A stretch of 32,000 nucleotides of DNA. It comes from Chlamydiota bacterium. GTDB taxonomy: Bacteria; Auribacterota; JACPWU01. Under the pieces are notes generated by a model. That model was not told the DNA's origin and did not search any database. It saw only the letters and a program-made list of their open reading frames with translations. This document shows, piece after piece, positions 8,242 through 28,397 of the stretch. The stretch covers positions 1 to 32,000 of the forward strand of contig JACPWU010000054.1 of NCBI GenBank assembly GCA_016196885.1. Direction: 5' to 3'. The translations under genes were made by a program, and so were the position numbers. Numbering within the stretch: position 1 is the first letter of the stretch; the number at the start of each line of letters is the position of its first letter.

Positions 8242-8287
8242 ATAAATAACTTTACAAATTACGCCATTACGACAAGTATTTCCGCAC

Positions 8288-8420
8288 TGTCATTTCGAAC
8301 GAGCCGAGGCGAGTGAGAAATCTTTCTCTTAAAGTATAGCAAGGGATGTTACGTTTGGGGGAAGGATTTCTCAGTCGGGTAGTCCAATCTGACATTGGAC
8401 TACCCTTCTTCGAAATGACA
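8288..8420. repeat. 133-bp nested-palindrome element, the ORF-less relative of the GIY-YIG-framing repeats
   Basis: Outer inverted repeat TGTCATTTCGAA (8288-8299) / TTCGAAATGACA (8409-8420). Inner inverted repeat GAGAAATC (8315-8322) / GATTTCTC (8365-8372). It also holds a perfect 12-bp hairpin at 8377-8405. The left half recurs at 16572-16606. The right half recurs at 16908-16922, 17656-17696 and 18641-18696. Confidence 0.65.
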
Positions 8421-10662: not shown

Positions 10663-10783
10663 ACCACCGTCCTTTGCCTAAAGGAATATGGGAAGAAATG
10701 GATTCTTCAAATAACAGATTCCATTTTACCAAAGTTGGCGTTGGGAATAGAATAGAATTTCAATCAAAATATGAAGAGACGCG

Positions 10784-11563
10784 ATGATGCATTCAAGGCT
10801 TCTTCAAACGATTTTCCTGTGTGTTTTTATAGCCTCTCAAATTTGTCAGGCACAAGAAAAGGTTCAGCCTCCTTCTAAACGGGCGAGCTCTCTGATGGGT
10901 TATGCCTTGCCTTGGGATTGGGATCGGGTGGATTCGCAGCATTTTGCAGACGTTTTGTATTCAGCGGGATGTACAGCAACCCTTATTGAAATTGATAACA
11001 AGAGAGATCCTTCCTTTGTTGCAAGTTGGGTGAAGCCCTTTCGCGGAAGGGGAATCACGGTCGAGGTGGTGGTGATGAATTCCAATACGTTGTCTCTGCA
11101 TCAATTACCTGTCTCCTGGTTTGAGAATTATCTGATAGAATTGGAGAAAGTTTTAAATCCAAAAGGGGTCATCCTCCAGCCTGTTTCAGAACCGGGTAAT
11201 CGCGGGGGCGATCGAGAAAAAATAGAACATTGGATCGAATTTGGCCTGATTCATTGGCCGGGTCCGACCGCTTTAAGTATAGGATGGCCTTGGGGGGACC
11301 GGTATAAAAACAAGGCAACTTATTGGGAAGAGCATTGGTGTCGCGACTTTAGTGAAAAAACGATTCGATCAGACAGCAAATACATTAATACGACGGATTG
11401 CTCTACGATGATTGACATCTCTGCCGATCGGGTCTATCAATTGGCTAAGATTGCTGTGAAGAAAAAAGCCAATTTTATTTATTATCATGGAAATCCAAAA
11501 GGACCTCTCCAAATGGATAAAGAAAAGATCAAGGCCCTTGCTCGGGCGATACAGGAATCTTGA
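10784..11563 (+). CDS. Secreted hypothetical protein
   Basis: The N-terminal signal peptide is MMHSRLLQTIFLCVFIASQICQA/QE. I recognise no family with confidence. The SEPG and EEHW motifs are faintly reminiscent of clan GH-A TIM-barrel hydrolases. Confidence 0.55.
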   Translation: MMHSRLLQTIFLCVFIASQICQAQEKVQPPSKRASSLMGYALPWDWDRVDSQHFADVLYSAGCTATLIEIDNKRDPSFVASWVKPFRGRGITVEVVVMNSNTLSLHQLPVSWFENYLIELEKVLNPKGVILQPVSEPGNRGGDREKIEHWIEFGLIHWPGPTALSIGWPWGDRYKNKATYWEEHWCRDFSEKTIRSDSKYINTTDCSTMIDISADRVYQLAKIAVKKKANFIYYHGNPKGPLQMDKEKIKALARAIQES

Positions 11564-11595
11564 AAAAATTTCATTTTGAATGAAAAAGTTTAACC

Positions 11596-12951
11596 ATGAA
11601 CTTCTCTAAAAATAGGCATGTTTTTTTGATTCTAGGTTTAACACTTATTTATTTTGCATCTGTTTCTCTCGAAGCAGTAGAAATTCTCTCAGATGTTCCA
11701 GAAGCTGTAACAAGTGAGACCCTCCAAAAGAGGAAGCTAACCCTTCTCGAAGCCTATCAACTTGCTTTGAAGCAAAGTGAGGCAGTCGCTTTGAGCGTGG
11801 AGGAAATCCATCAGGCCCGCGCCCGGTTTTACCGAGCGTTTGATTATGTTCTGCCAAGGGTAGATTATATTATGTCACACACAGAGCGGGATGCCCCTCA
11901 TAATGCCGCTCCCGCGGGGGGCATTGGAGGTGATTTTACGAGGTCGGTGACGCCTGAAAATAGATTCACGTTCATACAACCTCTTTTCAGCGGCTTCAAA
12001 GAAATAGCGGCCTTGCAAGGCAGTGGGGCAGATAAAAAGCAGCAACTCTTAAATTGGAGACGTGCAAAGGAACTTTTATTTATAGATGTGATGGATGCTT
12101 ATTATGCAGTGCTTCAAGCGAAGAGAAATGTGAAGACGCTGAAGAATTCCCGTCAATTGGGAAGGGATCGGCTGAAGGAATTAGATGAGAGAATTAAAGT
12201 CGGGCGTTCGCGAGAAACTGAAAAGCAGACAGCCCTTGCAGATTTAAGATTGGTGGAGTCGGATCTGGTCCAGGCGGAGTCTCTCCTGAAAACCTCTCAA
12301 CAGTTGCTCGAGTTTTACATAGGTGAATCTCTGGAAGCGCGGGTCTTGGTAGATGAAAAGATTCCTTTTGAAACCTTTGTCCCTTCAGAATTCGAGAAAA
12401 AGGCCGAGGCACGTGCCGATGTTCAAGCGGCAGAGCAAAGATATATTCTTGCAAAAAAAGAATTATTCATCGCCAGAGCCGATCTTTTTCCAACGATTAC
12501 GGCCAGAGGAAATTATTTTACCAAACGTGTTGGGTTTCAATCTGGAGACGATTGGGACGTGGCTGTTGAGCTGAATATCCCTGTGTTTGAATGGGGGAGT
12601 ATTTGGGGCAATATCAGAGCAGCCCTTGCGACGCGCGAGAGTAAAAGACTTTTATGGCAACAGGCGAGGCGTTCGGCTCTCTTAGATATTCAAAATGCGT
12701 TTGAAGATTTGGACATGGCCCATTTAAATGCAAAAGCCCTTTGGAGGGCGAAAAAAGCTTCCGAAAAAAATTATCAACTGGTAGCGAGTGATTACCGCGT
12801 GAACCTGGTGAATAATTTAGAAGTCTTAGATGCGCTTCGCCGATTGCAAGACATTGAATTGCGTTCCAATGAAGCCCATTATCAGTTGAAGAAAAGTTTT
12901 TGGAAGTTTAAGGTTGCGTTGGGAGAGGTTTTGGAGGGAGTAGAAACATGA
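11596..12951 (+). CDS. TolC-family outer membrane efflux protein
   Basis: It has a signal peptide and two tandem coiled-coil/beta repeats typical of OEP/TolC. Its stop overlaps the RND start in an ATGA 4-nt overlap. Confidence 0.85.
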   Translation: MNFSKNRHVFLILGLTLIYFASVSLEAVEILSDVPEAVTSETLQKRKLTLLEAYQLALKQSEAVALSVEEIHQARARFYRAFDYVLPRVDYIMSHTERDAPHNAAPAGGIGGDFTRSVTPENRFTFIQPLFSGFKEIAALQGSGADKKQQLLNWRRAKELLFIDVMDAYYAVLQAKRNVKTLKNSRQLGRDRLKELDERIKVGRSRETEKQTALADLRLVESDLVQAESLLKTSQQLLEFYIGESLEARVLVDEKIPFETFVPSEFEKKAEARADVQAAEQRYILAKKELFIARADLFPTITARGNYFTKRVGFQSGDDWDVAVELNIPVFEWGSIWGNIRAALATRESKRLLWQQARRSALLDIQNAFEDLDMAHLNAKALWRAKKASEKNYQLVASDYRVNLVNNLEVLDALRRLQDIELRSNEAHYQLKKSFWKFKVALGEVLEGVET

Positions 12952-15900
12952 CCCTTTCAGATATTTCTATTAAAAATCCTGTTTTTGCCTGGATGCTCAT
13001 GGTGGGGATCATGGTGTTCGGGGTGATTGGTTTTTCGCATTTGGGGGTGAGTCAGCTCCCCGATGTGGATTTTCCGGTGGTGTCTGTAGGCATTGCCTGG
13101 GAGGGAGCTGCTCCTGAAGTCATGGAAACAGAAATCACGGATGTGATCGAAGATGCCGTGATGAACATTCAGGGAATTAAGGAAGTATCTTCCACTTCAG
13201 CCCAAGGGCAATCTCAAATTTCGATTGAGTTTGAATTAAATCGCAATATAGATGTCGCTCTTCAAGAAGTACAAACCAAAATCGCTCAGGCTCAAAGAAA
13301 TTTGCCACGCGATATTGATCCTGCCATTGTGACCAAGACAAATCCTGAAGACCAGCCGATTATGTGGTTTGCGCTTTCAGGGGACCGACCTCTCAAGGAC
13401 TTGACGCGTTATATCAGTGAGACTTTAAAAGACCAGGTCACGACAGTCAAAGGCGTGGGAGAGGTTCGACTGGGGGGATTTGTGGATCCCAATTTGAGGG
13501 TGTGGCTGGACGAAAAAAAGATGAAGGAGAAACAGCTCACGGTGGAGGATGTTCTCAATGCCATCAGCGAGCAACACACAGATCTTCCTGCGGGTTACAT
13601 TGATACAGGCCCTCAAGAGATTAACGTCAGGGTTTACGGAGAGGCTTCTACCCCTGAAGAATTTTCAAAAATGATTATTCCTCAGCGTGTGCGTGGCGGT
13701 CCTGTTTGGAATCAGCTTAAAATTGAGGATGTAGGGTGGGTGGAAGATGGTCTAGCAGACATTCGCCGCATTTCTCGCAGTGGCGGACGCCTTGCAGTGG
13801 GACTGGGCATTGTCAAGCAGCGTGGGTCCAATGCGGTGGCGGTGGCGAATGCCGTTCGGCAAAAGGTGAGTGAGCTTCAAAAGGCATTGCCTGAAAAAAT
13901 GTATTTGAAGCAGGTCTTTGACACAACCCAATTTATTCGGTCTTCTGTGAACGAGCTGGAATTTAATTTAATGCTCTCCGTGATTTTAACCTCGATCGTC
14001 TGTTTCTTTTTTCTGGGTTCCTGGAGTGCAACTTTTAATGTGTTGCTCTCAATACCCACTTCTCTCTTGGGCGCATTCCTCGTGATTTATTTTCTGGGGT
14101 TTACCATCAACACCTTTACCATGCTCGGACTTTCATTGGTCATTGGGATTGTCGTGGACGATGCCATTATGGTTTTGGAAAATATTTCTCGTTATCAGGA
14201 GCAGGGCCTGTCACGTATAGAGGCGGCAAAGACAGGCGCCCGTGAAATCACCTTTGCGGCCATGGCGGCGTCTCTGGCCATTCTGGCGATTTTCATTCCC
14301 GTGATTTTCATGCAAGGGACGATCGGCCGATTCTTTTATCAATTTGGGGTCACCATTTCTGTGGCGGTGATGTTTTCACTCCTAGAGGCTCTGACCCTTG
14401 CGCCCATGCGCTGTTCTCAATTTTTAGAAGTGGGTCACACGACTCGGCTTGGGAAATTTGTGGATCGAGGGATGAATGGACTCACGCGTTTTTATCGTTT
14501 TATTCTTTCCTTTTTGTTAAACCACCGAAAGAAAGTTCTCTTCCTTGCGACGCTCATTTTTATTTCCTCTCTTTATCTGACCACGCTTTTGAAAAAAGAG
14601 TTTGTTCCCTCCCAGGACCAAAGTCGTTTTCTGGTTCGCATCATGCTTCCTCTTGGATCCTCGATTGGAAAGACAGACGAGCTTTTTAAAAAGGCGGAGG
14701 CCTTTTTAATGAAAAGACCGGAGGTGGCCAGTTATTACAGTGCGGTCGGTGGTTTCGGTGGAAGTCAGGTGAATCAAGGAATGCTTTTTGTCACGATGAA
14801 ACCGATGAAGGAGAGACCTGTCATAAACGCTCGTCCCGAAACCCAAGCAGAATTAATGCAAGTGGTCCGTAAAGAATTCAATGCCATTCCAGGCGTTGAG
14901 CGAGCCGTCATCCAGGATTTGTCTCTCTCCGGATTTTCTGCGCAACGAGGTTTCCCTGTGGAATTCACGATTCGAGGGCCTGATTTTGACAAACTTGGCG
15001 AGTTGAGTGAAAAAATGATGAAACAAATGAAAGACTCAGGAGCCATGATAGACATTGATACCGACTATCAATTGGGCATGCCCGAGATGAAAATTTATCC
15101 GGATCGTCAAAAGGCAGCGGATCATGGCGTGAGTGTTCATTCCATTGCCAATACCATCAACGCAACAGTGGGTGGCATTCGGAGTGGAAAGTTTACGAGC
15201 CATGGGAAGCGCTATGACATTCGTGTTCGACTGGCAAAAGAAGATCGCTCGAGTTCAGAAGATATCGGAAAAATATGGGTGAGCAATCGGCAGGGAGAAG
15301 TGTTGCCCTTGTCAGAGGTGATTACCTCTGAAACCAAGCCCACTTTATTTTCCATTACACGTAAAAACAGAGAACGGGCGGTGAGCATTTTTGCAAATCC
15401 TGCTCCCGGCCATTCTCAGCAAGAGGCTTTGCTCATGGTTCGGAAAATAGCCAAGCAAGTTTTGCCGGGCGATTATCACGCCATTTTTTCGGGAGGATCT
15501 CAGGCCTTTAGGGAATCCTTCAACAGTTTGATTTTTGCACTCGTCTTGGGCCTTTTTGTGGCCTATATGGTCTTGGCGACCCAGTTCAATAGCTTCCTTC
15601 ATCCTGTCACAGTTCTTTTGGCCTTGCCCTTCAGCGTGACGGGTGCCTTTGTGGCTCTTTATCTTAAAGGAAGCTCTCTGAATCTTTACAGCATGATTGG
15701 GCTTATTCTTCTGATGGGCATCGTGAAGAAAAATTCCATCTTGCTCGTGGACTTTACCAATGAACGGCGCAAACAGGGCCTGAGTGTTCGGGAAGCCCTC
15801 TTAAATGCATGTCCTGTGCGACTGCGGCCCATTCTGATGACCTCGGTTGCTACGGTTGCAGCCGCCATTCCAGAAGCATTTTCAAAAGGTGCAGGATCAG

Positions 15901-16040
15901 AAACCATGGTGCCCATGGCTGTGGCAATTGTCGGAGGTGTCACCTTTTCGACGCTGCTCACCCTTTTTGTGGTTCCTTGTGCTTATGAGACATTTTCAAA
16001 ATTGGAAAAGAGGGCGTATCAAGTGGGTGAGCAAATGTGA
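12948..16040 (+). CDS. RND efflux pump inner-membrane permease (AcrB/HAE1-like)
   Basis: 1030 aa. The N-terminus is LSDISIKNPVFAWMLM. It has the 12-TM plus two large periplasmic loop architecture and a VVDDAIMVLENI motif. Confidence 0.95.
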   Translation: MTLSDISIKNPVFAWMLMVGIMVFGVIGFSHLGVSQLPDVDFPVVSVGIAWEGAAPEVMETEITDVIEDAVMNIQGIKEVSSTSAQGQSQISIEFELNRNIDVALQEVQTKIAQAQRNLPRDIDPAIVTKTNPEDQPIMWFALSGDRPLKDLTRYISETLKDQVTTVKGVGEVRLGGFVDPNLRVWLDEKKMKEKQLTVEDVLNAISEQHTDLPAGYIDTGPQEINVRVYGEASTPEEFSKMIIPQRVRGGPVWNQLKIEDVGWVEDGLADIRRISRSGGRLAVGLGIVKQRGSNAVAVANAVRQKVSELQKALPEKMYLKQVFDTTQFIRSSVNELEFNLMLSVILTSIVCFFFLGSWSATFNVLLSIPTSLLGAFLVIYFLGFTINTFTMLGLSLVIGIVVDDAIMVLENISRYQEQGLSRIEAAKTGAREITFAAMAASLAILAIFIPVIFMQGTIGRFFYQFGVTISVAVMFSLLEALTLAPMRCSQFLEVGHTTRLGKFVDRGMNGLTRFYRFILSFLLNHRKKVLFLATLIFISSLYLTTLLKKEFVPSQDQSRFLVRIMLPLGSSIGKTDELFKKAEAFLMKRPEVASYYSAVGGFGGSQVNQGMLFVTMKPMKERPVINARPETQAELMQVVRKEFNAIPGVERAVIQDLSLSGFSAQRGFPVEFTIRGPDFDKLGELSEKMMKQMKDSGAMIDIDTDYQLGMPEMKIYPDRQKAADHGVSVHSIANTINATVGGIRSGKFTSHGKRYDIRVRLAKEDRSSSEDIGKIWVSNRQGEVLPLSEVITSETKPTLFSITRKNRERAVSIFANPAPGHSQQEALLMVRKIAKQVLPGDYHAIFSGGSQAFRESFNSLIFALVLGLFVAYMVLATQFNSFLHPVTVLLALPFSVTGAFVALYLKGSSLNLYSMIGLILLMGIVKKNSILLVDFTNERRKQGLSVREALLNACPVRLRPILMTSVATVAAAIPEAFSKGAGSETMVPMAVAIVGGVTFSTLLTLFVVPCAYETFSKLEKRAYQVGEQM

Positions 16041-16063
16041 TGTCATAAATGGAGGTGTTGCTC

Positions 16064-16549
16064 ATGTTAAGAAAAATACTTTTTCTTTTAGGATGGTCCC
16101 TTGTGTTTTGCGAGGGAAGTTTTTCACAAGAGGGGGATGCCATGAAAGAATCCAATTACAATAAAACAGAAGAAGAGTGGTCAAAAGTTTTGACACCCGA
16201 ACAATATCAGGTGTTACGCATGAAGGGAACGGAACAGCCATTCACAGGGAAATATAATATTTTCTTTAGAAAAGGGAAATACGTCTGTGGGGCTTGTGGA
16301 TATGAATTATTTGACTCAGGAAGTAAATTTGAATCCCATTGCGGCTGGCCCAGTTTTGACCGATCTATAGAAGAGGGAAGAATCAAAGAGGTCAAGGACA
16401 CTTCTCACGGCATGGTCCGAACCGAGATTTTATGCGCCCGATGCGGCAGTCACCTCGGGCATGTCTTCAACGATGGCCCCACTGAAACAGGGCTACGCTA
16501 TTGTGTGAATTCACTCTCACTTGATTTCAAGGGAGAGAAGGAGGAGTAA
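16064..16549 (+). CDS. msrB: Peptide-methionine (R)-S-oxide reductase MsrB with an N-terminal signal peptide
   Basis: SelR motifs are present: CGACG and CARCG zinc cysteines, GWPSF, HLGHVF and RYCVNS. ATG 16064 is preferred because GGAGG lies 8 nt upstream. The N-terminus [16 protein letters not shown] looks like a signal peptide. Confidence 0.9.
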
Positions 16550-16571
16550 GTACGAGCTCTCCGACACGCTT

Positions 16572-16606
16572 TGTCATTTCGAACGAGCCGAGGCGAGTGA
16601 GAAATC
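16572..16606. repeat. Left half-repeat of the GIY-YIG-framing element
   Basis: TGTCATTTCGAACGAGCCGAGGCGAGTGAGAAATC is identical to 8288-8322. Confidence 0.7.
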
Positions 16607-17953: not shown

Positions 17954-18618
17954 ATGACTGATATGAACTTTCATCGAATTCTCGATCTTCAACAATTATT
18001 GAAAAAAAAGTCTTTTTTCCTTTTTCTCGATTTCTAAAAGCAGCGGCTCTTTCTGTAGGGCAACCCCTCAACCTGACACAGATTGGCAGTGACTGCCAAG
18101 TTCCTCCCTCTACAGTGAGAGAACATTATTCGATTCTTGAAGACACCTTGGTGGGTTTTTTTTTAGAGCCCTGGACACGATCTCAAAAAAGAAAAGCTGC
18201 TCAGACGGCTAAATTCTACTTCTTCGATTTGGGCGTTACACACACATTAACTGGAACAAAGACCCTGGATCGTAACTCGAACCTTTATGGGATGAGCTTT
18301 GAGCAGTTTATTGGGATGGAGCTACGCGCCTATTTAAGTTATCATAGACTCAAGGAACCCTTATCTTTTTGGCGTTCCCTTCATGGTTACGAAGTTGATT
18401 TCGTGATAGGAGACCATACAGCCATTGAGGTCAAGGCCACACAACGTGTTTCACAACACGACATGAAGGGCCTCAAAATGTTGAGAGAAGAGGCTGTTTT
18501 TAAAGAATATTATCTGGTAAGTCAAGATCCTATTGAGATAAAAAAAGAAGGGATGACTCTCATTTATTGGGAGAATTTTTTGAAGAGACTTTGGGAAGAC
18601 CAGGTGTTTTCAATTTGA
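17954..18618 (+). pseudogene. AAA_14/DUF4143-type ATPase with the AAA core deleted
   Basis: The N-terminal peptide MTDMNFHRILDLQQLLKKKSFFLF stops at 18033-18035. A second frame then continues FSRFLKAAALSVGQPLNLTQIGSDCQVPPSTVREHYSILEDTLVGFFLEPW... to the normal C-terminus at 18618. The P-loop domain that normally lies between these two parts is missing. Confidence 0.75.
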
Positions 18619-18640: not shown

Positions 18641-18696
18641 GATTTCTCAGTCGGGGTGTCCGATCTGACATCGGACACCCCTTCTTCGAAATGACA
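18641..18696. repeat. Hairpin repeat copy between convergent gene ends (possible terminator)
   Basis: GATTTCTCAGTC + GGGGTGTCCGAT-CTGAC-ATCGGACACCCC (18653-18681) + TTCTTCGAAATGACA. It sits between the stop of the ATPase pseudogene (18618) and the stop of the giant ORF (18704). Confidence 0.65.
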
Positions 18697-18703
18697 TGCT
18701 TTA

Positions 18704-21700
18704 TTACATCGAACGCTGTGCGGCTTCGTTTCTTTGGATCATCTTATCGAGTGTTCTTAATGGAAGTTCCAGGCTGGGATGTGTCTTGAGACTAATCCCA
18801 TTTTCAGGATTGTCAATCTCTGCCAGTAATGCGGCCTTCTTTTCAGGATCTGTTACCAATCTCTCAATCAGAGCCCTATAATCTTCAGGCGATTGAGCGG
18901 CCACCAACATCTGGGCTAAAGTGACCTGGGCATTACCCAAGACCAGGCGTTTACGGCATTCTGCATTTTCACCATACTCTTGGCTCTTCTCAAGAGATCC
19001 CAAAACAATAACATGTTCTAGATCTGACAACTCATCCGCTTGCAAAAAGTTCTCTAACGCATAGGAGGATGTTGGCCTGACCCTGTAACGATCCCTCAAA
19101 TCATCCAGGTTAAATCTCTTTTTTACTGGATCCATCTCGCCCTCGTGAGAGACAACGAAGGTCACATAAACCTCTTTAGGCAGTCTTTGCAAAATTTCGA
19201 GAAGCTCTAGGCCATCTTGTTCCATCACGAGACGCACATCGATTAAAATGTGAAAATTTTCTTTCGAGCTGATACCCTTCATAAATGGATCCTTCTTGAC
19301 AATGCTTGCTTTTACGTTCGCGATGTCTTGGACCCACGCCGCTTGCCTTCCGTCCACAATCAGGCCAGCCAAATCATCGGTGAGCTTAGCTGCTGCGGCA
19401 GAATCCATGCCCTTTGAGCGAATGCGAGCGTTTAAAGCTCCTCCCACAACTTCAAGAATACGACGGACGCTCCCACCTCCTTGTAAATAACGCGAACGAT
19501 ATTCTGGATCGTCCAGGAACTGATTTAGATCAAACGAACGACTCGGGCGATTTCGTTTTCCTGTTGTGCCTCTTCTCTGAGAAGAAGATTTCTTCCCTTC
19601 AGATCTTGGAAGCGCGGGGACAGGTAAATCAAAAACAAACTGAGCACTCGTCCACTCGTTCATCGTGATCCAATACTCAGCAAAGGAACTGCGGGTGGTT
19701 CCCAGATGGATGGGCTTGGATGCTGCCGGTGCGTCTCCCAAAGAGAGAAGCGTCCACAAATCTGCCGGTCTTTTTTCCCAAAATTTCAAGCGTTCTCGTC
19801 TGTTTTCTCTTCTGAACCGTTTCAGGGCTTCGTGAGGTCTCTCATTCAGAGCTAAAGAGGCTTCTCCCGAACTCAAAGGGTCTCGCGCAAGCAAGTTTTG
19901 CGCCATCAAATCGTAATAAACACCCCATGAATCAGGCCTGGAAAATCTGGCTCCCAAGATAGTCTCTACTTCTAGCTCTTGACGCACTTGGGCCTCTGTC
20001 GGATTTTCTGAAGGAGATTTCAAGAGAGAGATGAGATTGGGTCTGTCTTCGGGTGATTGAAGGAGGGCGATTAAAATCGCGAGACGTGTATAAGGCTCCT
20101 CTGGTCTAAGAGAGCCGCTTTTGATTTGTTCTTGGACTGCCTGAGAAAGCTTTTGTGAATAAAATCTTCTTACGAGGTTTTGATAAAGATCATCCTCCCC
20201 ATGAGTGGTCCCATATAAATCCATGGCCACGACAAGCCCCGCAGAAATCAAAACACTGGATTTGGGTGAGAAAGAAGCACTCAGCGTTTCGCTACTGGTC
20301 TCCGTTATTCTATAGCGAGGATGAAATAATCTATGGGTATCTCCATCCATCCTATCGAAGGTTGAAAGAATTTTTTTAATCATTTTTTGAGCTTCTTGAA
20401 ATGAAATCTTCTCCAAACGCTGACGCTGGGCGATCGTCAAGAGACTTAAGCCCAAGTCTTCTGAGGATATCTCAAGACCCACTCGCAGACCCGTCTCATT
20501 GAAGGAGGCATCAAACCAGGCTTTAAACTGCTCCCACCCCTTATCATATTCTTTGTTGCAATAAGCGACCTCTTTTGGAGAGAGTGGAGCGGGTGTTTCA
20601 ACGTGGTCAGTGGGTGCAGGGACAGGGGCTGCTTGTTCACTCTGCGCTGCTGGTGCTGTTGCTTCCTCGCGTGGTACAGCAGGAGGTGAAACCGCTGGGG
20701 CAGCAGGGACAGGGGGGGGTTCTGCAGGAGCTGCAGGTACAGGAACAGAAGGTAATACTGAACCTGTTGTTCCTACCCCTGCTGGACTGGGATCTAATAG
20801 ACGTCTGAGACCTAACCCTCTTGCGTCTTTATGTTCTCCTGTCCAAAATCTATTCCAGAACTGATCAGGTGTTGTGAATGCTTGTTGTGCACTGAAGAGC
20901 GCATCTGAGAGAGCCATGAACGTCCATAAGGGATCAGAAGGGGCGTATCCATTTCTTTTGAGGCGATCAAGCACCTCATCCCCTGCGAAACGTAATGCCA
21001 GGGCACTGTCTTGTGGCTTTGTCGCAAGCCAAGGGGTGGCTATTTGTTGATCGTACTCATCCCACCGAGCTTCGAGTCCGCTGAGTCTGAGAAGAAGATC
21101 TATTTCCAACTCTTGGCGCTGGACATCGTTTGGAGGGTTTGCTAGAGGGGGCCTCAATTGTGTAATCAGACCTAGGTCGAACTCGTCTGCTTGAAGAACA
21201 GCCAACAAAATGCAAAGACGTCCATAAGGCTCTTCGCCGAGATGGGGATTTGTTTTGAGTAACTCTAATGTAGCTGTGTGAAAGTCCATTGAATGAAACA
21301 GTTCTTTAAGAGCTTGATAAGTAGGATCTTTTGCATAACCTGGATCATTTTCCCTGAGAAACTCCATGGCAACGACAAGTCCATAAGCGGCTAAGCCATT
21401 GGACCTGACTGTAGCAAGAGCTCCTTCTTGTTTCACCCCTTCTATTACCATCGCAGTGGTACCTTTTTCTGCTGTCATGGTGTACACATCGTACAAAAGG
21501 CCGTTAGGGGCTTTTTCACTGAAGCTTAAATCGTCAACGATCCCCTGAATCATTTCTTTAGCTTCTTCTAAAGAAATGGCAAGTGTAGAATTGAGACTGG
21601 CTGGTTCCACAGAAAGAGCGTAAGCTTGTGTAATGGCTACAAGGTCTAAGCCAAGCGTCCCGGGCTTTACTGGATTACCTGCGTTGGTGACATGGGTTAC

Positions 21701-24700
21701 AGGATCGCGTGTAGTTTTAATAGATTGGATAACAGTTTCCCATCTTTTAGGAAGCTCAGTTCTAAAGAAGGCCAAATTCCCTTCGTTGAGGGTAACGCCC
21801 TGCGAAGTGGATTTTTTCTCAGGCTTTGGGCCTATTTCGACCCTTGCCCCTGGGGTTGTCCCTCGATCGGCTCTTTTTAGTTCGATAGCATGAGGTACAA
21901 GGGTCAAGTTAGCCGACCCTGTCCAGGCGGGACGAACTGTCAAAGGGTCATACGCGTCCAGGTTGCCGGCACCGATCTCGATGCTTGCCCTTCCGAGCCG
22001 AGGATGAACCCGAGAGTAACGCACGGACGCAGTCCCACGAAAGCGACCTCTTGAGGAGGCATCGCCGCCGACCGAAAGAAGCCATTCTCCTCCTAGTCCT
22101 ACGAGGGTGGCATTGGATTCGAAAAAGACGCGCACGCCTTGGGAAGGAGAAAAGGAATTTGTCAACCGGCCATGTTCTCCTGGAGATGAAATGGTGGCGA
22201 CAGTGTCCCAAGAAAATAGATCAACTACAGTACCTGCTTTCAAAGCCCAGGAAGCAAGAGGGCCTCTACTAGGTGAGTAATCCGCCATATTCAAATAAAG
22301 CCGAATGTCGGTGAGGGGTTCACCTACAGCGTTCAAGATTAAGGTATCTCCACTTTGAGTCCCCTCTAAATAATACCCCCCGCCTCCATAAAGTTCATCT
22401 AGAAAACCTCTTTGAAAGGCTGTGTCGGGATTTCCTGAATGGGCTGCCCACTGCTGAACAGCGGTTTGCAAAAGGGGATCCGGTAAAAAAGCAGTTTTCA
22501 AGTGAAACGTTATAGGTCCCCCTATTAGTTGAGCATGCAATGCGAGTGTGCTGGGGGGAAGAGGCGAACCGTAGACACGAAGAGGATTGACCGGTTGGTA
22601 AAATACGGCTGCGATAGGATCCAGACGGAACCAAGCGCCATTGATAATGGGATTCAGTCTAAACTCCGCCCCTCCTGAAGGGCGAATCATCCATGTTCCA
22701 TCAGGGGTGGCCAATGCTTGGATCCCGAGCCTTATCTTGGCTCGCCCAAAGGATCGAAGGCCATACACATAACCCATGTAAAGGGGATTGTTTTTATATA
22801 ATTCCCAAAGGGTCAAGTCTTGTGCTCTGAGATAGTTAGGATCGGCAAAGGCTTCCACTAAATCGGGGTCTACATAGGTATTGATCCGACCTCCTCCGCC
22901 AAGAAAGACCCAGTTTCCGTAGTTTGCTGATAAGTGGCCTGAATCTACCCCCAAGGTTCCGTATTGGAAGAAGGCAGAGGGGGTTATCTCTCTTGGTATT
23001 TCGGGGGCTGAAGAGACTGCAGGAGTAAGAGGCACTTCTGAAGCGGGTGGTGGTGTCACAGGTTCTGCTCCTTGAGCCAGGGCTAAATGGGACATGAAAA
23101 GCAGGGTCAGAGCAAGGACTGCTCGAGAGAATCTCGGCATGCGTTTTAGAAAACGAGAAGTTAAAGGAAGAATAGAAACGAGGGCAACAGGAATTGCAAA
23201 AATAGAATAGGAAGAATTAAAAGCAAGTAAAGATAAAGTAGCAAAGCCCAAAATACTGAAAAATGAAAATTTCAAAAATCTGAAATTCCAAAACTGAGTT
23301 CCCACTGGGCTTCCGTAACTGCCTCCTCTTGAGGATTCGCTCTTAGGTTTGGCTGATGAATCTTCAGCTTTGAGAGGGGCTTCGTCTGGGATTACATCAG
23401 CGGTGAGATTATCATAGACCACTGAACCACTGTCATAAGAACTCAAGAAACCTATTTGGTAAGGCCTATAGCCCGCAGGTGTTTGTACAATCTGTGTTGA
23501 TTTTAATTCATCATCTACATAAAAACGTACGGTATTGTTACCTTGATCGAGAGGATCCGGAACAATCTCCAACCTTACCTGATACGCAACATTGTATTGT
23601 AAATCCGATGGAACACCTTCATCAGGACCTCCTGAGTCTTCCACAGCGTAGTGTGTCGGATCAGCATAGAGATTGACATATTTCAAATTTGATACATTGG
23701 AAGGATCGGCATATACGACGACAAACGCACTCTGATTCGCGTTGTTGAAGGTAACTTGATATTCAAATTGAAAAGAACTATCTAGATCAATGAATCCTAA
23801 ATCATTTCGATTCATTGCCGCGGAATATCCGACTGTTGAAGAGTCTCCATCTTCTGTGACTGTAAGTGTACCGTCTGATGGAATGGACCAAGTAGTATTT
23901 CCATTATTACCGTTTTCATCATAGATCACTTCCCATCCTCCCCCCAATAAATCATCGAATGATTCATAGCCGTTAAAATCTTCTGAGTAAAAATGGGTGT
24001 CTGGGCCAGGAGTTGGGGTTACTTCAGTAGGCGTCGGAGTAACTTCAGGCGTTCCAGCAGGTGTTGGAGAAGCTTCAGGCGTTCCAGCGGGTGTTGGAGA
24101 AACTTCAGGCGTTCCAGCAGGCGTCGGAGAAGGTTCAGGCGTTGGTGTGACAACCACAGGCGTAGGGCTTGGAGCTTCACTAGGTTCAGGTGTCTGTGTA
24201 GCTGAAGGTGTAGGAGCTTCAGTAGAAGTAGGCGTCGGAGTAACCTCAGGTGTGGGACTTTCTCCAGCAGGTGTAGGAGAAACCCCGGGCGTCGGAGAAA
24301 CCTCAGGAGTCACAGCAGGCGTTGGAGAAACCTCTATCGGTGTGGGGGATCCACTGATGGGCAGGGGTGTAGCTCCTGGAAACTCTGTTTCAAAGCAACC
24401 CATGAAAGAAGCAAGACTCATTGCAATTAAGAGAACGATGCTCGCGGGGAGCACTCTTGAGAGCACACGCAAAAAACTCCCTCCTTGAGAAGGTGTAGAA
24501 GGTACTTCCTTCGGGAAGAGTCGATCGAGCACGTTCTCTAAGGGTTCCGTATATCCATCACGTATTAATACTCGGGTCAGATATCTCTCGGTTAAAGCAC
24601 GTCGGCTTTCATCGTTATCGTTCAACAATGCAAGAATTTCGTCAGCATTCTCAAACTCAGTGATGGTTAGAAATTGATTGAGATCAAGTGTGGGAAGTAC

Positions 24701-26596
24701 GCCTTCGGCGGAAGCGGGCTCTAATTCTCGGCTTTCCAATTCGCGAAGCACAGACTCAAGGTCGCTGACGGCTTCAATGGCTGCTTGAGTATTCCCCAAC
24801 CCCTGCTGCCAATCTGCAAAAAGTTTAGCGTGATTCCAGTTTGAGGCCTCAATCATTTCTCGGCCCATTTGTCCTGTCGTTTGCATCCCCAGCAAATGAA
24901 GGCGTGCGATCTTGAGTAATGTGGGCAAAGGTGCTGTTTTCAAGGCGCCTGGGGCACCTCCTAATAAGCCAAACAGTTCCTCCATTTTTCTAAAATAAAG
25001 ACTTCGATCATCGGGATGACTCACGCGAGGGCTGATGATCCAGTAGCCGATTTTGGCTTCTTTGAGCAATTCTTTGAGGCCGGAAGTATGAAAACCTCCA
25101 GCAACCAAGGCCGCATGGTTGATTTTTTTCTCAGAGATCAGAGCGAGAGATTTATCCAGAAAGATGTGATCGCGTTCAAGCACTTTTTCGTAGAATTTTG
25201 CGGCCGTTTTGAAAACATCCCCAAAATCAGGGGATTCGAAAGCCGTTGTTCGTTGCTCGTCCTTCGTCGCTCGTAGATACAAAGTTTTGAGTTTGGCAAC
25301 AAATTCTGTGACGAAACGGTTTCCGGTACGATCTACGGACGACGAGTGACGATAGACGGCTTCAATATCTTCCCGCTTTCCTTCGAGTCGCGCAACCCGG
25401 TCGAGAATTGCATAATTTTTCTGAATCTCTATCAATTCTCTTTCCTGATCATTTTGGATGAGGGCTTGAGTTAATTCTTCTTCGGCCTCTTTCATTTCAC
25501 CGTCTAATTTTTCCCATGAAAGATTTTTCATGAGATTCATTTGGTCCATGAGAAGTTTGAGATTTTGAAAGGTCGAACTTCCATTTTCCATACGATTCAT
25601 GTATTGGCTCAAATAAAGATAATGTTCTTGATCGCTCACTTGCCCCAGGCGATATTCCAGGACATGCCTTAAAAGGCTTGTGGATTCTTCCTTGGGGAGT
25701 TTGGCTTCAAGAATCTCTAGGAAGTGAAGGTATTCCTTTTCCAGGGCTTCTGGATTCACTTGCGATTCTAATTGAACCAGATCGGCATAATTTTTTAGAG
25801 TTGGATAAGGGGTGGAGACATCCTTGCCGAATGTTTCCTTATACTGCTGGGATAATTCTTTAAAATAGGTCTGAATATCTGTTCTCGTCTCTCGGTACTG
25901 CTTTACTTTGCTCATCCAGTCGTACATTCCTTTAGAGAAAACCTTTTTCTCAAGTGCTTCAATCATCTCTTTCGAGGTTTGCCAGGCCTGTTCCTGAAGG
26001 GTGTTTTCCTCCAAAGATTTTCCCATGGCGTCAATATTGTCTACATAAACGGATAAATCTTCGATTCCGAGACCCTGTGCCTTGTCAGGTCCTTCGGTGA
26101 TGAGAAAGGATTCCACGGCGTCAATATCGCTTCTCTGAAGAAATTTCTCTTGAGCGATTTGAAGCGCCTTTTTGTCTGGAAAGGTATCGAAAAAGGACAT
26201 GTCCATGCGGCCTTCAGCGGCCTCTGAGAAAACATAAAAGAGGGAATTGGGATTGGAAGATGGATGCGCACGTGAAACTGTTTTTAAAATGCCTCGTATA
26301 TGGGCTTGTGCTTCTGGATTGCAGTGAATATCTTCAATAATGAACAATACGGGACGATCCTGAAAAACATTTTTTTCGACCACTTCTCCAAAATCACTCG
26401 GAATTTTTAAATGATCCAAAGCTGCACCGAACTCTTCTGAAGGCCTCTGAAGATTCCAATCGCTCCTTTGAATGGGGGAGGATTTGGACACAGTCTGGGC
26501 TATGTTTGCATCTTGTGCAAAGGTGAAACTACAATCGTGGGTGATAAAGGAAAGACAGACAACAAGGCTGATGATTTGACGCGCAATTTTGAACAT
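18704..26596 (-). CDS. Giant multi-module exported protein (2630 aa), possibly three fused cistrons
   Basis: One uninterrupted ORF. GGAGGG lies 4 nt before ATG 26596, followed by an N-terminal signal peptide. It has internal signal-peptide-like segments at about aa 709-734 and 1153-1175, a Pro/Thr linker, a jelly-roll-like region, a beta-rich region, two paralogous modules and a Pro/Ala linker. See the findings for detail. Confidence 0.8.
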   Translation of the reverse strand: MFKIARQIISLVVCLSFITHDCSFTFAQDANIAQTVSKSSPIQRSDWNLQRPSEEFGAALDHLKIPSDFGEVVEKNVFQDRPVLFIIEDIHCNPEAQAHIRGILKTVSRAHPSSNPNSLFYVFSEAAEGRMDMSFFDTFPDKKALQIAQEKFLQRSDIDAVESFLITEGPDKAQGLGIEDLSVYVDNIDAMGKSLEENTLQEQAWQTSKEMIEALEKKVFSKGMYDWMSKVKQYRETRTDIQTYFKELSQQYKETFGKDVSTPYPTLKNYADLVQLESQVNPEALEKEYLHFLEILEAKLPKEESTSLLRHVLEYRLGQVSDQEHYLYLSQYMNRMENGSSTFQNLKLLMDQMNLMKNLSWEKLDGEMKEAEEELTQALIQNDQERELIEIQKNYAILDRVARLEGKREDIEAVYRHSSSVDRTGNRFVTEFVAKLKTLYLRATKDEQRTTAFESPDFGDVFKTAAKFYEKVLERDHIFLDKSLALISEKKINHAALVAGGFHTSGLKELLKEAKIGYWIISPRVSHPDDRSLYFRKMEELFGLLGGAPGALKTAPLPTLLKIARLHLLGMQTTGQMGREMIEASNWNHAKLFADWQQGLGNTQAAIEAVSDLESVLRELESRELEPASAEGVLPTLDLNQFLTITEFENADEILALLNDNDESRRALTERYLTRVLIRDGYTEPLENVLDRLFPKEVPSTPSQGGSFLRVLSRVLPASIVLLIAMSLASFMGCFETEFPGATPLPISGSPTPIEVSPTPAVTPEVSPTPGVSPTPAGESPTPEVTPTPTSTEAPTPSATQTPEPSEAPSPTPVVVTPTPEPSPTPAGTPEVSPTPAGTPEASPTPAGTPEVTPTPTEVTPTPGPDTHFYSEDFNGYESFDDLLGGGWEVIYDENGNNGNTTWSIPSDGTLTVTEDGDSSTVGYSAAMNRNDLGFIDLDSSFQFEYQVTFNNANQSAFVVVYADPSNVSNLKYVNLYADPTHYAVEDSGGPDEGVPSDLQYNVAYQVRLEIVPDPLDQGNNTVRFYVDDELKSTQIVQTPAGYRPYQIGFLSSYDSGSVVYDNLTADVIPDEAPLKAEDSSAKPKSESSRGGSYGSPVGTQFWNFRFLKFSFFSILGFATLSLLAFNSSYSIFAIPVALVSILPLTSRFLKRMPRFSRAVLALTLLFMSHLALAQGAEPVTPPPASEVPLTPAVSSAPEIPREITPSAFFQYGTLGVDSGHLSANYGNWVFLGGGGRINTYVDPDLVEAFADPNYLRAQDLTLWELYKNNPLYMGYVYGLRSFGRAKIRLGIQALATPDGTWMIRPSGGAEFRLNPIINGAWFRLDPIAAVFYQPVNPLRVYGSPLPPSTLALHAQLIGGPITFHLKTAFLPDPLLQTAVQQWAAHSGNPDTAFQRGFLDELYGGGGYYLEGTQSGDTLILNAVGEPLTDIRLYLNMADYSPSRGPLASWALKAGTVVDLFSWDTVATISSPGEHGRLTNSFSPSQGVRVFFESNATLVGLGGEWLLSVGGDASSRGRFRGTASVRYSRVHPRLGRASIEIGAGNLDAYDPLTVRPAWTGSANLTLVPHAIELKRADRGTTPGARVEIGPKPEKKSTSQGVTLNEGNLAFFRTELPKRWETVIQSIKTTRDPVTHVTNAGNPVKPGTLGLDLVAITQAYALSVEPASLNSTLAISLEEAKEMIQGIVDDLSFSEKAPNGLLYDVYTMTAEKGTTAMVIEGVKQEGALATVRSNGLAAYGLVVAMEFLRENDPGYAKDPTYQALKELFHSMDFHTATLELLKTNPHLGEEPYGRLCILLAVLQADEFDLGLITQLRPPLANPPNDVQRQELEIDLLLRLSGLEARWDEYDQQIATPWLATKPQDSALALRFAGDEVLDRLKRNGYAPSDPLWTFMALSDALFSAQQAFTTPDQFWNRFWTGEHKDARGLGLRRLLDPSPAGVGTTGSVLPSVPVPAAPAEPPPVPAAPAVSPPAVPREEATAPAAQSEQAAPVPAPTDHVETPAPLSPKEVAYCNKEYDKGWEQFKAWFDASFNETGLRVGLEISSEDLGLSLLTIAQRQRLEKISFQEAQKMIKKILSTFDRMDGDTHRLFHPRYRITETSSETLSASFSPKSSVLISAGLVVAMDLYGTTHGEDDLYQNLVRRFYSQKLSQAVQEQIKSGSLRPEEPYTRLAILIALLQSPEDRPNLISLLKSPSENPTEAQVRQELEVETILGARFSRPDSWGVYYDLMAQNLLARDPLSSGEASLALNERPHEALKRFRRENRRERLKFWEKRPADLWTLLSLGDAPAASKPIHLGTTRSSFAEYWITMNEWTSAQFVFDLPVPALPRSEGKKSSSQRRGTTGKRNRPSRSFDLNQFLDDPEYRSRYLQGGGSVRRILEVVGGALNARIRSKGMDSAAAAKLTDDLAGLIVDGRQAAWVQDIANVKASIVKKDPFMKGISSKENFHILIDVRLVMEQDGLELLEILQRLPKEVYVTFVVSHEGEMDPVKKRFNLDDLRDRYRVRPTSSYALENFLQADELSDLEHVIVLGSLEKSQEYGENAECRKRLVLGNAQVTLAQMLVAAQSPEDYRALIERLVTDPEKKAALLAEIDNPENGISLKTHPSLELPLRTLDKMIQRNEAAQRSM
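24048..24137. repeat. 30-bp tandem repeat x3 inside the giant ORF (encodes PTPAGTPE[V/A]S units)
   Basis: The units GGCGTTCCAGCAGGTGTTGGAGAAGCTTCA, GGCGTTCCAGCGGGTGTTGGAGAAACTTCA and GGCGTTCCAGCAGGCGTCGGAGAAGGTTCA lie head to tail. More diverged units surround them across about 23995-24360. Confidence 0.85.
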
Positions 26597-26794
26597 ATTC
26601 CCTCCTCAGGGTAACAATTTATAACGAAAATGGGTGCGGAGAAAAAGACACTCCGGGCTAGAAATAGCCTACAGACGGAAGACACTTCTTGGCCTAAAAA
26701 GGTCAAAATAAATGAGGTTCAAAGAGTGAGGGATAGGGAACCTCTTCCTGCTAAAGGGGTTTTGGAACGAGGATTTTGAGTAAAAAGAGGTTAT

Positions 26795-27017
26795 TTTAAA
26801 CCCAGATTTTGCAATAGACGCGAGAACTCAAGAGCAAGAGCTTGAGCCAGACAGGCCTTTGCAGTCCCTGTGGGATTGGCCTGAAGAAAGCGCAGGCATG
26901 CATAAAAAGATGCCTGTCGAGCATTTCTGAAGGCCAAGATGGCCAAGATCTCAAGCTGTTATAGGAACCTGTGGGATGCGGTCGAATTCCGCGGCCTATT
27001 GCAAATTCTGGGTTAAA
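26795..27017. repeat. 223-bp element E4 with terminal inverted repeats, upstream of the giant ORF
   Basis: TTTAAACCCAGATTTTGCAATAG (26795-26817) versus CTATTGCAAATTCTGGGTTAAA (26996-27017). Internal hairpins include CTCAAG-AGCAAGAG-CTTGAG. GGCCAAGAT occurs twice in tandem. No clean target-site duplication was seen. Confidence 0.5.
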
Positions 27018-27126
27018 GGAGGGTGGTCCGATAGATGTTAGAGAGCCTGTTGGTGTTGTCGCATCCTATCCTACCTGTCGTGTCACGCACCCCAGCCCAC
27101 ATGTCATTTCGAAATCATGTCTTTTT

Positions 27127-27170
27127 GTAGCCGCCCGATTCATCGGGCAGTCCCATAAATGGGGCGACAC
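27127..27170. repeat. Double-hairpin REP-like repeat (copy 2, inverted relative to 1283-1327)
   Basis: GTAGCCGCCCGATTCATCGGGCAGTCCCATAAATGGGGCGACAC is the reverse complement of copy 1 with a few substitutions. It lies just 3' of the minus-strand stop at 27182. Confidence 0.6.
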
Positions 27171-27181
27171 CAAAATGAGCC

Positions 27182-27728
27182 TCACTTCTTTGTTGTTGCA
27201 CTCGCAGTCGTGGCCGTATCTACGTTTGTATTTGTTGAAGAAGTTTTTTGTTTCTGAGCTGAAGCAACTGATAACGTATTTGCACTGACCCACTTAATAT
27301 TTTTTAAATTGGGATTGTATTGTAGAGGAGCAGGTTTCAGCAAAGTCGCTGAAGATGTTTTGGTAGAACTTGTCTTTCCTGTAGAAACGGCTTGTTGAGT
27401 CGTTTTGCTGTTGGTTTGAGTTTTTTTAGTTTGTGGTGTTTTTGAAGAACTGGTTTTTGAAGATTCTTGAGAGGTTATTTTCTGTGCGGATGCATTTTGA
27501 GTAGAGACTGCGTGCCAATCTACATTTTGATAGGCAGGTTTTAAATTGAGAGCGGGTTTTTTTGCCTGTGGAGGTTGAATAACAGGAATCTTTGTTTGTC
27601 CAGAAGCAGGTGTTTCAGTGCTATGGGGTGCAGATGAAGAAGATTGTGAGGACATCTGGTTTAGAGCATTCCAATCCACAGAATTTGAGTGTGTTTGAGA
27701 AGATGAACTTTGAGATGTATTGCTGGGG
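27182..27728 (-). CDS. S/T/Q/K-rich low-complexity segment with repeated [SN][VI][DK]W motif; probably the frameshifted C-terminal continuation of the beta-trefoil ORF
   Basis: The track ORF 27182-27904 looks like real coding sequence only from about HPSNTSQSSSS onward. It carries the motifs SVDWNAL, NVDWHAV and NIKWVSA. A related RSDWENR motif occurs in the other frame upstream. Confidence 0.5.
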
Positions 27729-28397
27729 TGCTGGCGCCGTTTGCGTTCTAGAATTTTCAGGAGGGCGAGAAGAAGAGGGGGCAGCGGGCTCTCGTCTGGG
27801 GGCAGAAGAGGGCTGTTCATCTCGAGCTGGACGATTCTCCCAATCAGAACGGGCGGTTGTTCGAGCCTGAAGAATGGGATGCAATCTAAATGTTTCCCAG
27901 ACATCGGCAGAGGTGTTGATTGCCCCTAAGTAACTGTCATTTCCAATCCCCGCGCGGACATATCTGCCCAAGGCGATCGATCGAAACGCCACTTTGTCAT
28001 CTCCCAGTTGGCGCAGTTCAAAAGTTTGTTCTTCTGCGATGTTTGAACTTAAAGCCATTACATCAAAATTAGGGATGTTGTAGCTGATGGAAGCGTACTT
28101 ATTGCTTTTGACGGATTGAAGAGCGACTTTGCGATTCCCCAAATCAACCAAGCGAAATGCCTCCCAAATTTGAAGGTGGGAACTGGCGGCGCCGAGCCTT
28201 GATTTTTCTCCGAGGCCTGCTCGGACGTATTTCCCAGTTTTAATGGATTGAAAAGCAACTTTCCCGTCTCCCAGCATGTGGATTTTAAAACCCTCCCAAA
28301 GATGAAGATGAGGACTGACGGCACCCAAATAGCACCCGATGAAATCAATGCCCGCTCGCACATAGCGTCCATTGGAGACAGATTGTATGCCGATCAT
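27621..28397 (-). CDS. Beta-trefoil (fascin-like repeat) protein; true 5' boundary unclear
   Basis: It has four tandem ~45-aa units of the form G[KR]YVRAG..LGA.....WE.F.L..LG..KVA.QS. The repeat pattern continues upstream of ATG 28397 (to 28541) in the same frame, where there is no ATG/GTG/TTG. The last ~30 codons before the stop at 27621 look non-coding. Confidence 0.6.
   Translation of the reverse strand: MIGIQSVSNGRYVRAGIDFIGCYLGAVSPHLHLWEGFKIHMLGDGKVAFQSIKTGKYVRAGLGEKSRLGAASSHLQIWEAFRLVDLGNRKVALQSVKSNKYASISYNIPNFDVMALSSNIAEEQTFELRQLGDDKVAFRSIALGRYVRAGIGNDSYLGAINTSADVWETFRLHPILQARTTARSDWENRPARDEQPSSAPRREPAAPSSSRPPENSRTQTAPAPQQYISKFIFSNTLKFCGLECSKPDVLTIFFICTP

Follow-up and report, generated by a model that had tools for sequence, protein, structure and literature searches.

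Giant proteins that combine many transmembrane (TM) segments with enzyme domains have been described from Omnitrophota and the Planctomycetes–Verrucomicrobia–Chlamydiae (PVC) group, in size classes of at least 5,000-10,000 amino acids (aa), and their authors note that the localizations predicted for them are implausible (10.1101/2023.11.21.568195; 10.64898/2026.06.07.730766). Most of these giants carry a divergent SecA_DEAD or SecA preprotein-binding domain (10.1101/2023.11.21.568195). Also relevant to the present locus are the TIKI enzymes, a family that includes endopeptidases and in which a parallel β-sheet core carries a 2His/2Glu site; in RRSP, this site consists of E3900-x-H3902, E3930 and H4030, with R4001 nearby (PMC6254334). 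Here, we describe a 7.9-kb gene from a 32,000-nucleotide (nt) stretch of a Chlamydiota bacterium (assembly GCA_016196885.1, contig JACPWU010000054.1, positions 1 to 32,000; hereafter the window). Its product of 2,630 aa, P0001, had been interpreted in an earlier reading of the DNA alone (the sequence-only reading) as three exported proteins joined in one frame.

P0001 consists of a signal peptide and an N-terminal domain with a following tail (module 1), a hydrophobic segment followed by a Pro/Thr-rich linker and an acidic region (module 2), and a hydrophobic cluster (segments a, b and c) followed by ∼1,450 further residues. We refer to the hydrophobic boundaries as junctions 1 and 2. Our analysis favors, with a probability of about 0.7, one real gene that encodes one long modular envelope protein with the topology predicted below.

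One gene or three

The gene (locus tag HYS08_04965) is an uninterrupted open reading frame (ORF) on the minus strand, preceded by a good Shine-Dalgarno (SD) sequence, as the sequence-only reading had stated. Such a strong SD is unusual locally, most other genes of the window being without one. The product is identical to MBI1883537.1 and MBI3267102.1 at NCBI, where the record gives it as a "hypothetical protein" and labels the metagenome-assembled genome (MAG) a Chlamydiae/Chlamydiota bacterium.

Because the source genome is a MAG, sequencing or assembly errors might have deleted stop codons and thereby fused three neighboring genes, and an error-like frameshift does occur in a gene of the same family in one related MAG. 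We compared the window with Logan, an independent re-assembly. A Logan contig from read set SRR12113387 shows 0 mismatches over 8,177 bp to positions 18647-26823, across the entire gene, and yields the identical 2,630-aa translation. GC content by codon position follows one constant pattern over the whole frame, and the two alternative frames contain 4-22 stops per 600 nt. Taken together, these observations make an assembly or base-calling error very unlikely and refute the concern that base errors had created the ORF. Further points against an artifact are the occurrence of the identical protein under two accessions, an orthologue and paralogues that read through the same junctions, and the position of the sole break found elsewhere, in a tandem repeat distant from the module boundaries. 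We regard a fusion by error as extremely improbable and as effectively ruled out already.

Relatives were sought by an exhaustive HMMER search with the C-terminal 1,200 residues (aa 1431-2630) against 1.84 billion representatives. The sole other protein matched was P0029, whose alignment to query aa ∼994-2419 is collinear and shows 25-28% identity. On contig L003, a gene for a 938-aa protein lies upstream of P0029 with a 4-nt overlap. This protein is the orthologue of module 1, with a signal peptide, both His motifs and a counterpart of the junction-1 segment (RRPLRAYFTVVATALLTLMVLCGIGC/LPPDG; here and below, a slash marks the predicted site). The two genes are separated by a frameshift or collapse at 9795-9996, within a 21/42-bp tandem repeat encoding (GDDDxTx)n, and the same repeat can be read in the P0029 frame upstream of its annotated start. 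On this evidence from the contig sequence, HYZ66_01325 (938 aa; L003 7188-10004) and HYZ66_01320 (2,200 aa; 10001-16603) are one gene. Its intact form, HYS07_06750 (P0041; 3,146 aa), is unbroken in another Chlamydiota MAG and falls into the same 90%-identity cluster as P0029, so that the public annotation can be corrected.

P0041 contains all modules and both junction segments in one frame. BLAST alignments run across junction 1 (query 1-742 with P0041 1-851, 47% identity) and across junction 2 (query 994-1900 with P0041 1216-2136). The hydrophobic cluster is kept in frame in P0029 and P0041, including KSFRRMPKFARATLLSLALLFMSHFAQA/QS, which corresponds to SRFLKRMPRFSRAVLALTLLFMSHLALA/QG of P0001; the shared consensus of segment c, RMP[RK]F..LLFMSH..A.A/Q, is conserved far above its surroundings. 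The Chlamydiota paralogues P0002, P0004 and P0005 also read through junction 1, and in P0002 and P0004 the hydrophobic segment ends in Cys and is followed by a Pro-rich linker. Neither stop codons nor a conserved SD with start codon were found at the module boundaries in this genome or in the relatives compared. Three separate cistrons are thus refuted at the genome level, the expectation that relatives encode the modules as adjacent genes found no support (the lone split relative is broken by the repeat frameshift and not at a module boundary), and the giant ORF is, as judged from these alignments, a genuine single gene and a true giant fusion.

The modular view itself held up. Module 2 is exchanged between the orthologues: P0001 has a region described as jelly-roll-like, whereas P0041 has acidic repeats and TSP3 Ca-binding repeats. 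Module 1 also exists as stand-alone proteins of 480-630 aa, one of them in the same MAG. By these comparisons the modules are separate evolutionary units, and what was wrong in the notion of three joined exported proteins was the idea of separate genes or an artifact.

Nested genes would offer another way to obtain separate products: additional initiation at TTG709, and perhaps at ATG1153, would yield an independent lipoprotein and a secreted protein. At junction 1 (caaGGAGGGagttttTTG), an SD-like GGAGGG (24479-24484) is located 6 nt before an in-frame TTG (24470-24472, aa 709), exactly where the signal-like segment begins. The motif is conspicuous in an organism whose genes rarely have strong SDs, and P0004 has GGAGGA-atc-ATG, in frame, at the equivalent site. 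However, the start codon is missing in P0002 (GTA) and in the true orthologue (GTA/ATT). The SD-like sequence arises because Gly-Gly is coded GGA-GGN: 13 of the 20 Gly-Gly dipeptides of the ORF are encoded as GGAGG, and two of 16 GGAGG sites precede an in-frame start codon, which by a rough estimate is about chance level. ATG1153 is without an SD in both orthologues. Since the start codons vary, the number of GGAGG sites with a start codon is near chance and ATG1153 has no SD, a conserved internal start is unsupported, and we consider nested genes very unlikely. A small hairpin, CCTTC-TCA-AGGAGG (24479-24493, minus strand), would additionally pair the SD-like GGAGG with an upstream CCTTC; it emerged from a terminator-like scan and is probably fortuitous.

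The N-terminal domain as a candidate TIKI-like hydrolase

The features of the gene and its product are collected in Table 1. Searches of the whole protein against Pfam and NCBIfam gave no match, and PDB sequence searches with the N-domain profile, a core-only profile, the jelly-roll-like region, the beta-rich region and the C-terminal domain gave nothing significant.

Table 1. Features of the giant gene and its 2,630-aa product, with positions in the window.
Feature	Positions	Strand	Residues (aa)	Remarks
Giant ORF	18704..26596	(-)	2,630 plus stop	Complete, no internal stops
Shine-Dalgarno sequence GAGGAGGG	26600..26607	(-)		3 nt upstream of the ATG
Predicted Sec-type signal peptide MFKIARQIISLVVCLSFITHDCSFTFA/QD	26516..26596	(-)	1-27	...TFA/QD
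Conserved N-domain	24962..26419	(-)	60-545	α/β core split by a ∼300-aa all-helical insertion (aa ∼180-490)
Motif 1 IIEDIHCNPEAQ	26306..26341	(-)	86-97	At C-terminal end of a β-strand
VFSEAAEG	26210..26233	(-)	122-129	E125 ("LEGA" motif) nearly invariant, at end of next strand
R475 helix and motif 2 ALVAGGFHTSGL	25076..25189	(-)	470-507	R475, G500, G501, H503 invariant
Module-1 tail	24473..24961	(-)	546-708	Low-confidence model; conserved solely among Chlamydiota paralogues
Junction-1 hydrophobic segment LRVLSRVLPASIVLLIAMSLASFMGC	24395..24472	(-)	709-734	Ends in Cys734
Pro/Thr-rich linker	23996..24394	(-)	735-867	
Acidic globular region (HFYSEDF...VVYDNLT)	23402..23995	(-)	868-1065	Rich in D, S, V, G, N, Y
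Hydrophobic cluster	23072..23314	(-)	1095-1175	Segments a, b, c
Segment a			1108-1126	Strong TM candidate
Segment b			1132-1146	Short, contains Pro
Loop SRFLKRMPRFSR				Before segment c; charge +5
Segment c			1156-1174	Signal-peptide-like; A-L-A/Q site after aa 1174
Pro-rich linker	22952..23071	(-)	1176-1215	Downstream of segment c
Gly/Leu-rich region	21677..22951	(-)	1216-1640	∼425 aa; "beta-rich" in the sequence-only reading
Paralogous module A	20822..21619	(-)	∼1660-1925	Low-confidence helical prediction
Pro/Ala-rich linker	20573..20791	(-)	1936-2008	Between modules A and B
Paralogous module B	19637..20449	(-)	∼2050-2320	
C-terminal region	18707..19606	(-)	2331-2630	∼300 aa, no detectable family

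The signal-like segment at the N-terminus and the two His motifs described earlier are present: EDIHCNPEAQ (aa 88-97) and GGFH (aa 500-503). In an alignment of 23 sequences, D89, H91, Q97, G177, R475, G500, G501, H503 and P523 are invariant, and E125 and N187 nearly so. The helical part of module 1 exists as well, although it is mostly an insertion between the His motifs and does not follow them. An AlphaFold2 model of the N-domain (mean predicted local distance difference test, pLDDT, 83; predicted TM-score, pTM, 0.78) shows a β-α core with the ∼300-residue all-helical insertion, and it places the conserved residues at C-terminal strand ends or on an adjacent helix.

The result is a constellation of the 2His/2Glu type with a nearby Arg: D89-x-H91 (preceded by E88), E125, R475 and H503. 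Its order and spacing are closely comparable to those of RRSP, with E125 34 residues after H91 and R475 28 residues before H503. For comparison with Pfam profiles, the helical insertion was deleted in silico (alignment A2). With the insertion removed, three of 19 members matched PF04187 ("Haem-binding uptake, Tiki superfamily, ChaN"; best E=0.007), one matched PF01963 (TraB/PrgY/GumN) and three matched DUF5682. Every one of these weak matches involves the R...GGFH segment, and the part of the ChaN and TraB profiles that is aligned is their C-terminal end. Because the site resembles that of RRSP in order and spacing, and because the weak ChaN/TraB matches fall on R...GGFH, we predict that the N-domain is likely to be a hydrolase of the TIKI superfamily.

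A search with the whole protein retrieved 27 homologues, all of 1,871-4,548 aa, from Chlamydiota, Omnitrophota, Elusimicrobiota and unlabelled metagenomes. Their similarity is confined to the N-terminal ∼500 aa, where identity is ∼22% between phyla and ∼37-42% for the Chlamydiota paralogues; the match to P0002 and P0004 reaches aa ∼806. The N-domain matches 21 proteins of 1.9-4.5 thousand aa (kaa) from Omnitrophota, Elusimicrobiota and unlabelled metagenomes (E 5e-27 to 2e-5), and a profile search also gave N-domain-only proteins of 482-625 aa. In total, 40 N-domain proteins from three phyla were retrieved, 29 of them giants of 1.9-4.5 kaa with very different downstream content. Precomputed Pfam domains in these downstream parts comprise isocitrate lyase with malate synthase, Maf, phosphoglucomutase, protein kinase, glutamate dehydrogenase, GT2, asparaginase and RelA/SpoT. 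Most homologues have clusters of hydrophobic segments, many of which resemble signal peptides. The uncurated, conserved N-domain provides a handle for classifying 40 proteins over three phyla and a catalytic hypothesis, that of a TIKI-like His/acid hydrolase. Term searches of the two preprints on giant proteins (10.1101/2023.11.21.568195; 10.64898/2026.06.07.730766) did not turn it up.

A signal-like segment starts 35 of the 40 proteins, and the remaining five are fragments or incomplete at the N-terminus. Export of the N-domain is hence very probable. Among the long N-domain proteins, roughly half have a hydrophobic segment 160-260 aa past the GGxH motif, and signal peptide, N-domain and predicted anchor form a recurrent unit. 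In Tiki and PrgY, too, an extracytoplasmic domain is followed by a TM anchor. By the number of its members, the family has expanded within these Chlamydiota MAGs: the MAG of the window encodes a protein of the N-domain alone (P0031; HYS08_03780, 625 aa) besides at least two giant paralogues, P0001 and P0002.

Several further observations were made on family members. P0002, P0004 and P0005 each have a TM cluster twice (e.g., P0002 aa ∼950-1040 and ∼2030-2115), with conserved ...YDTR[IV]AP.LEE.LFGLP... and ...H..IN... motifs, which we take to recall the EExxxR and HxxxN motifs of CPBP/Abi intramembrane proteases. A precomputed label PF26157 (SGL_GH162) on P0002 and P0005 was not reproduced by hmmscan and was not relied on. 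The N-domain gene of the orthologue on L003 contains three in-frame copies of a ∼132-nt palindromic element (7511-7642, 8249-8380 and 8618-8749), with arms (GCTCGAG)n and (CCTCGAG)n and the peptide LEARGSKLEAK...SSLEPRASS. Exact 20-mer matches to it number seven, all within the N-domain gene, and 0 elsewhere in the 26.6-kb locus or in the window. P0004 and P0005, both paralogues, have similar peptide inserts; in P0006 and P0031, the repeated insert is another one. The element resembles the Rickettsia palindromic elements, which insert in frame into coding genes.

Downstream of module 1, the ∼130-aa Pro/Thr linker was found as described (27% P and 20% T over aa 735-880). The region that follows it exists, but the label "jelly-roll/LamG-like" is unsupported by the Pfam, NCBIfam and PDB sequence searches. 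The three hydrophobic stretches, the last of them signal-like, were recovered too, as were the two paralogous modules split by a Pro/Ala linker: modules A and B share 33% identity over 240 aa (E=3e-21) and are known only from P0001 and its orthologue, with two copies in each. For aa 1216-1640, the orthologue is the sole homologue found (∼25-28% identity), and for the C-terminal domain (aa 2331-2630), the exhaustive HMMER search and a PDB sequence search gave no relatives beyond it. An AlphaFold2 model of aa 1216-1960 from a four-sequence alignment gave no usable fold (pLDDT 38). As far as these searches reach, the C-terminal 1,450 aa are an orphan.

Membrane topology and the internal signal-like segments

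P0001 has an N-terminal signal-like segment and four internal hydrophobic segments, namely junction 1 and segments a to c. By Hessa-scale hydrophobicity, membrane insertion is predicted most strongly for junction 1 and segment a in both orthologues, with junction 1 ranking first in P0001, and the N-terminal segment and segment c show the weaker hydrophobicity typical of cleavable signals. Segment c has the properties of a Sec signal for signal peptidase I (SPase I), i.e., a basic n-region, an h-region within 7-15 residues and small residues at −3/−1. Its three parts read KRMPRFSR, AVLALTLLFM and SHLALA/Q in P0001, and RRMPKFAR, ATLLSLALLFM and SHFAQA/Q in the orthologue.

For the single-chain protein, we propose the following export route. 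The N-terminal signal peptide would be cleaved, leaving the N-domain in the periplasm, where it may act as a TIKI/TraB/ChaN-like hydrolase with a His/acid site of D89-x-H91, E125, R475 and H503 around the helical insertion. Junction 1 would then cross the membrane out-to-in as an anchor, which puts module 2 into the cytoplasm. Segment a would run in-to-out and segment b out-to-in or along the interface, so that segment a and the positively charged loop would return the chain to the cytoplasmic face, with the +5 loop itself cytoplasmic. Segment c would serve as an internal signal for export, at which translocation of the C-terminal ∼1,450 aa into the periplasm resumes, and SPase I may cleave it; such cleavage is plausible because the (−3,−1) rule holds in both orthologues and a Pro-rich linker comes next. 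The internal "signal peptides" would then not mark gene starts but would anchor a polytopic protein and re-initiate its export.

Several observations count against this account. The oddity pointed out by the sequence-only reading is real: a single chain would place in the cytoplasm parts that are normally extracytoplasmic, namely the Pro/Thr linker and the acidic domain here, and the acidic and Ca-binding TSP3 repeats in the orthologue. The N-in charge bias around the internal hydrophobic segments is also as described; at junction 1, the charge of +2 before the segment and −2 after it is what an N-in signal would show, and the segment ends in Cys in three lineages. As to the enzyme, no match to the PF04187, PF01963 or PF05139 profile was significant, the TIKI matches reached 12-14 bits, the best of them ∼13, compared with family cut-offs of 26-28 bits, and they appeared only after removal of the insertion. 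A Foldseek search of the N-domain model against PDB returned no TIKI structure (best E=0.33, coiled-coil/helical noise), and hhalign against E. coli YbaP of the TraB family was negative (probability ≤1%), a weak test with a single sequence. Compared with the described giants, the protein (2,630 aa; orthologue 3,146 aa) is far below the classes of at least 5-10 kaa, and the whole-protein Pfam/NCBIfam search gave no SecA_DEAD match.

The odd placement of module 2 leaves an appreciable probability to a processing mechanism, although we consider it unlikely. In this case, P0001 would be a secretory polyprotein, one chain cut into two or three separately localized envelope proteins by signal peptidase II after ...FMG/C734, by SPase I after ALA1174, and/or by the TIKI-like N-domain as peptidase. 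Segment c suits such a role: its +5 n-region, h-region of 10-11 residues and Ala at −3/−1 are kept in both orthologues against a background of ∼25% identity, and the Pro-rich linker adjoins it. The Cys at the end of the junction-1 segment is followed by disordered linkers in P0001, P0002/P0004 and P0041, the downstream parts are extracytoplasmic in type in both orthologues, and other family members have numerous internal signal-peptide-like segments. Moreover, endopeptidases exist among TIKI-family members (PMC6254334), and N-terminal peptidase domains have been proposed to cleave giants into smaller polypeptides (10.1101/2023.11.21.568195).

The "textbook" lipoprotein signal at junction 1 was only partly borne out, however. 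A hydrophobic segment ending in Cys is present, but in none of the three lineages does the lipobox follow the canonical [LVI][ASTVI][GAS]C; it reads FMGC in P0001, MTAC in P0002/P0004 and GIGC in P0041. The segment is not an N-terminal, N-in signal either, and its start codon is not conserved. Signal peptidase II would need the N-in orientation, which an exported N-domain precludes unless the chain has an additional membrane span, and hydrophobicity scans found none between aa 28 and 708. A cut at segment c alone would fit the single-chain protein and is no rival to it. A wider version, in which a TIKI-like peptidase heads ORFs of a bacterial secretory polyprotein system in Chlamydiota, Omnitrophota and Elusimicrobiota and the internal look-alikes are genuine processing or targeting sites, appears to us more doubtful still. 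If true, it would be a bacterial counterpart of viral glycoprotein polyproteins and would explain the "impossible" topologies predicted for PVC giant proteins. With the single-chain protein as the preferred interpretation, the in-frame signal-like segments and the implausible placement of module 2 provide a small testable model for insertion, export and possible processing of long envelope proteins.

Neighboring genes and comparison with known systems

On the downstream side of the giant gene, the ORF at 18115-18618 (+) is similar to an AAA_14/DUF4143 ATPase, but solely to its C-terminal half (aa 184-378, 39% identity). This ATPase gene is intact and convergent just downstream of the orthologue on L003 (16786-17931), and a similar gene is located upstream of the paralogue P0004 on L002. 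The ORF is probably a truncated ATPase remnant, a case of partial synteny. Upstream, a gap of ∼585 nt (26597-27181) contains only short ORFs of <105 aa. It is followed by an ORF for 240 aa of no family (27182-27904), which overlaps an ORF for 258 aa (27621-28397, minus strand) with a DUF7910 match (E=3e-14) and a weak resemblance to ricin-type beta-trefoils. An Rfam search of the window detected no RNA families, and promoter and terminator scans gave background level only. Locus scans of genome contigs and metagenome contigs found no relatives.

Three kinds of described systems resemble parts of the protein. With the TIKI/TraB/PrgY/GumN/ChaN/erythromycin-esterase superfamily, the N-domain shares, as modeled, an α/β core with putative catalytic residues at strand ends; the residues [D/E]-x-H ... 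E ... R ... H also follow in the same order, at similar distances. It differs in that a ∼300-aa helical insertion splits the core, and in that Asp replaces the first Glu in the family consensus.

Lipoprotein signals, the substrates of Lgt and LspA, are resembled by junction 1 in its basic n-region, its h-region of 17 residues, the Cys and the disordered linker. Unlike them, the segment lies within the chain (aa 709-734), behind an exported domain, and its residues −3 to −1 (F-M-G, M-T-A or G-I-G) depart from the canonical L-[AS]-[GA]. Processing at internal signal peptides is known from the FbcH cytochrome b/c1 precursor of Bradyrhizobium japonicum and from flavivirus and bunyavirus glycoprotein polyproteins. 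Residues 1108-1175 follow the same pattern, in which a hydrophobic span, a positive cytoplasmic loop and a short AxA signal restart the export of a large domain. Junction 1 has no preceding return span and cannot work in the same way, and cleavage in P0001 is a prediction only.

The broadest likeness is to the Omnitrophota and PVC giants. Unlike these, P0001 has no C39, S8 or dockerin-type domains, and its source phylum, Chlamydiota, is absent from the main text of 10.1101/2023.11.21.568195. What they have in common is a very long single ORF, a signal peptide with internal TM clusters and a mosaic of unrelated, mostly unannotated domains; in addition, the N-domain is directly homologous to that of the 1.9-4.5-kaa proteins of Omnitrophota and Elusimicrobiota. 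Giant modular membrane proteins, so far known mainly from Omnitrophota, are thereby extended to Chlamydiota MAGs at a tractable 2.6-3.1 kaa. The protein is a Chlamydiota member of the long modular envelope proteins of the PVC group, headed by an uncurated and probably TIKI-like domain.

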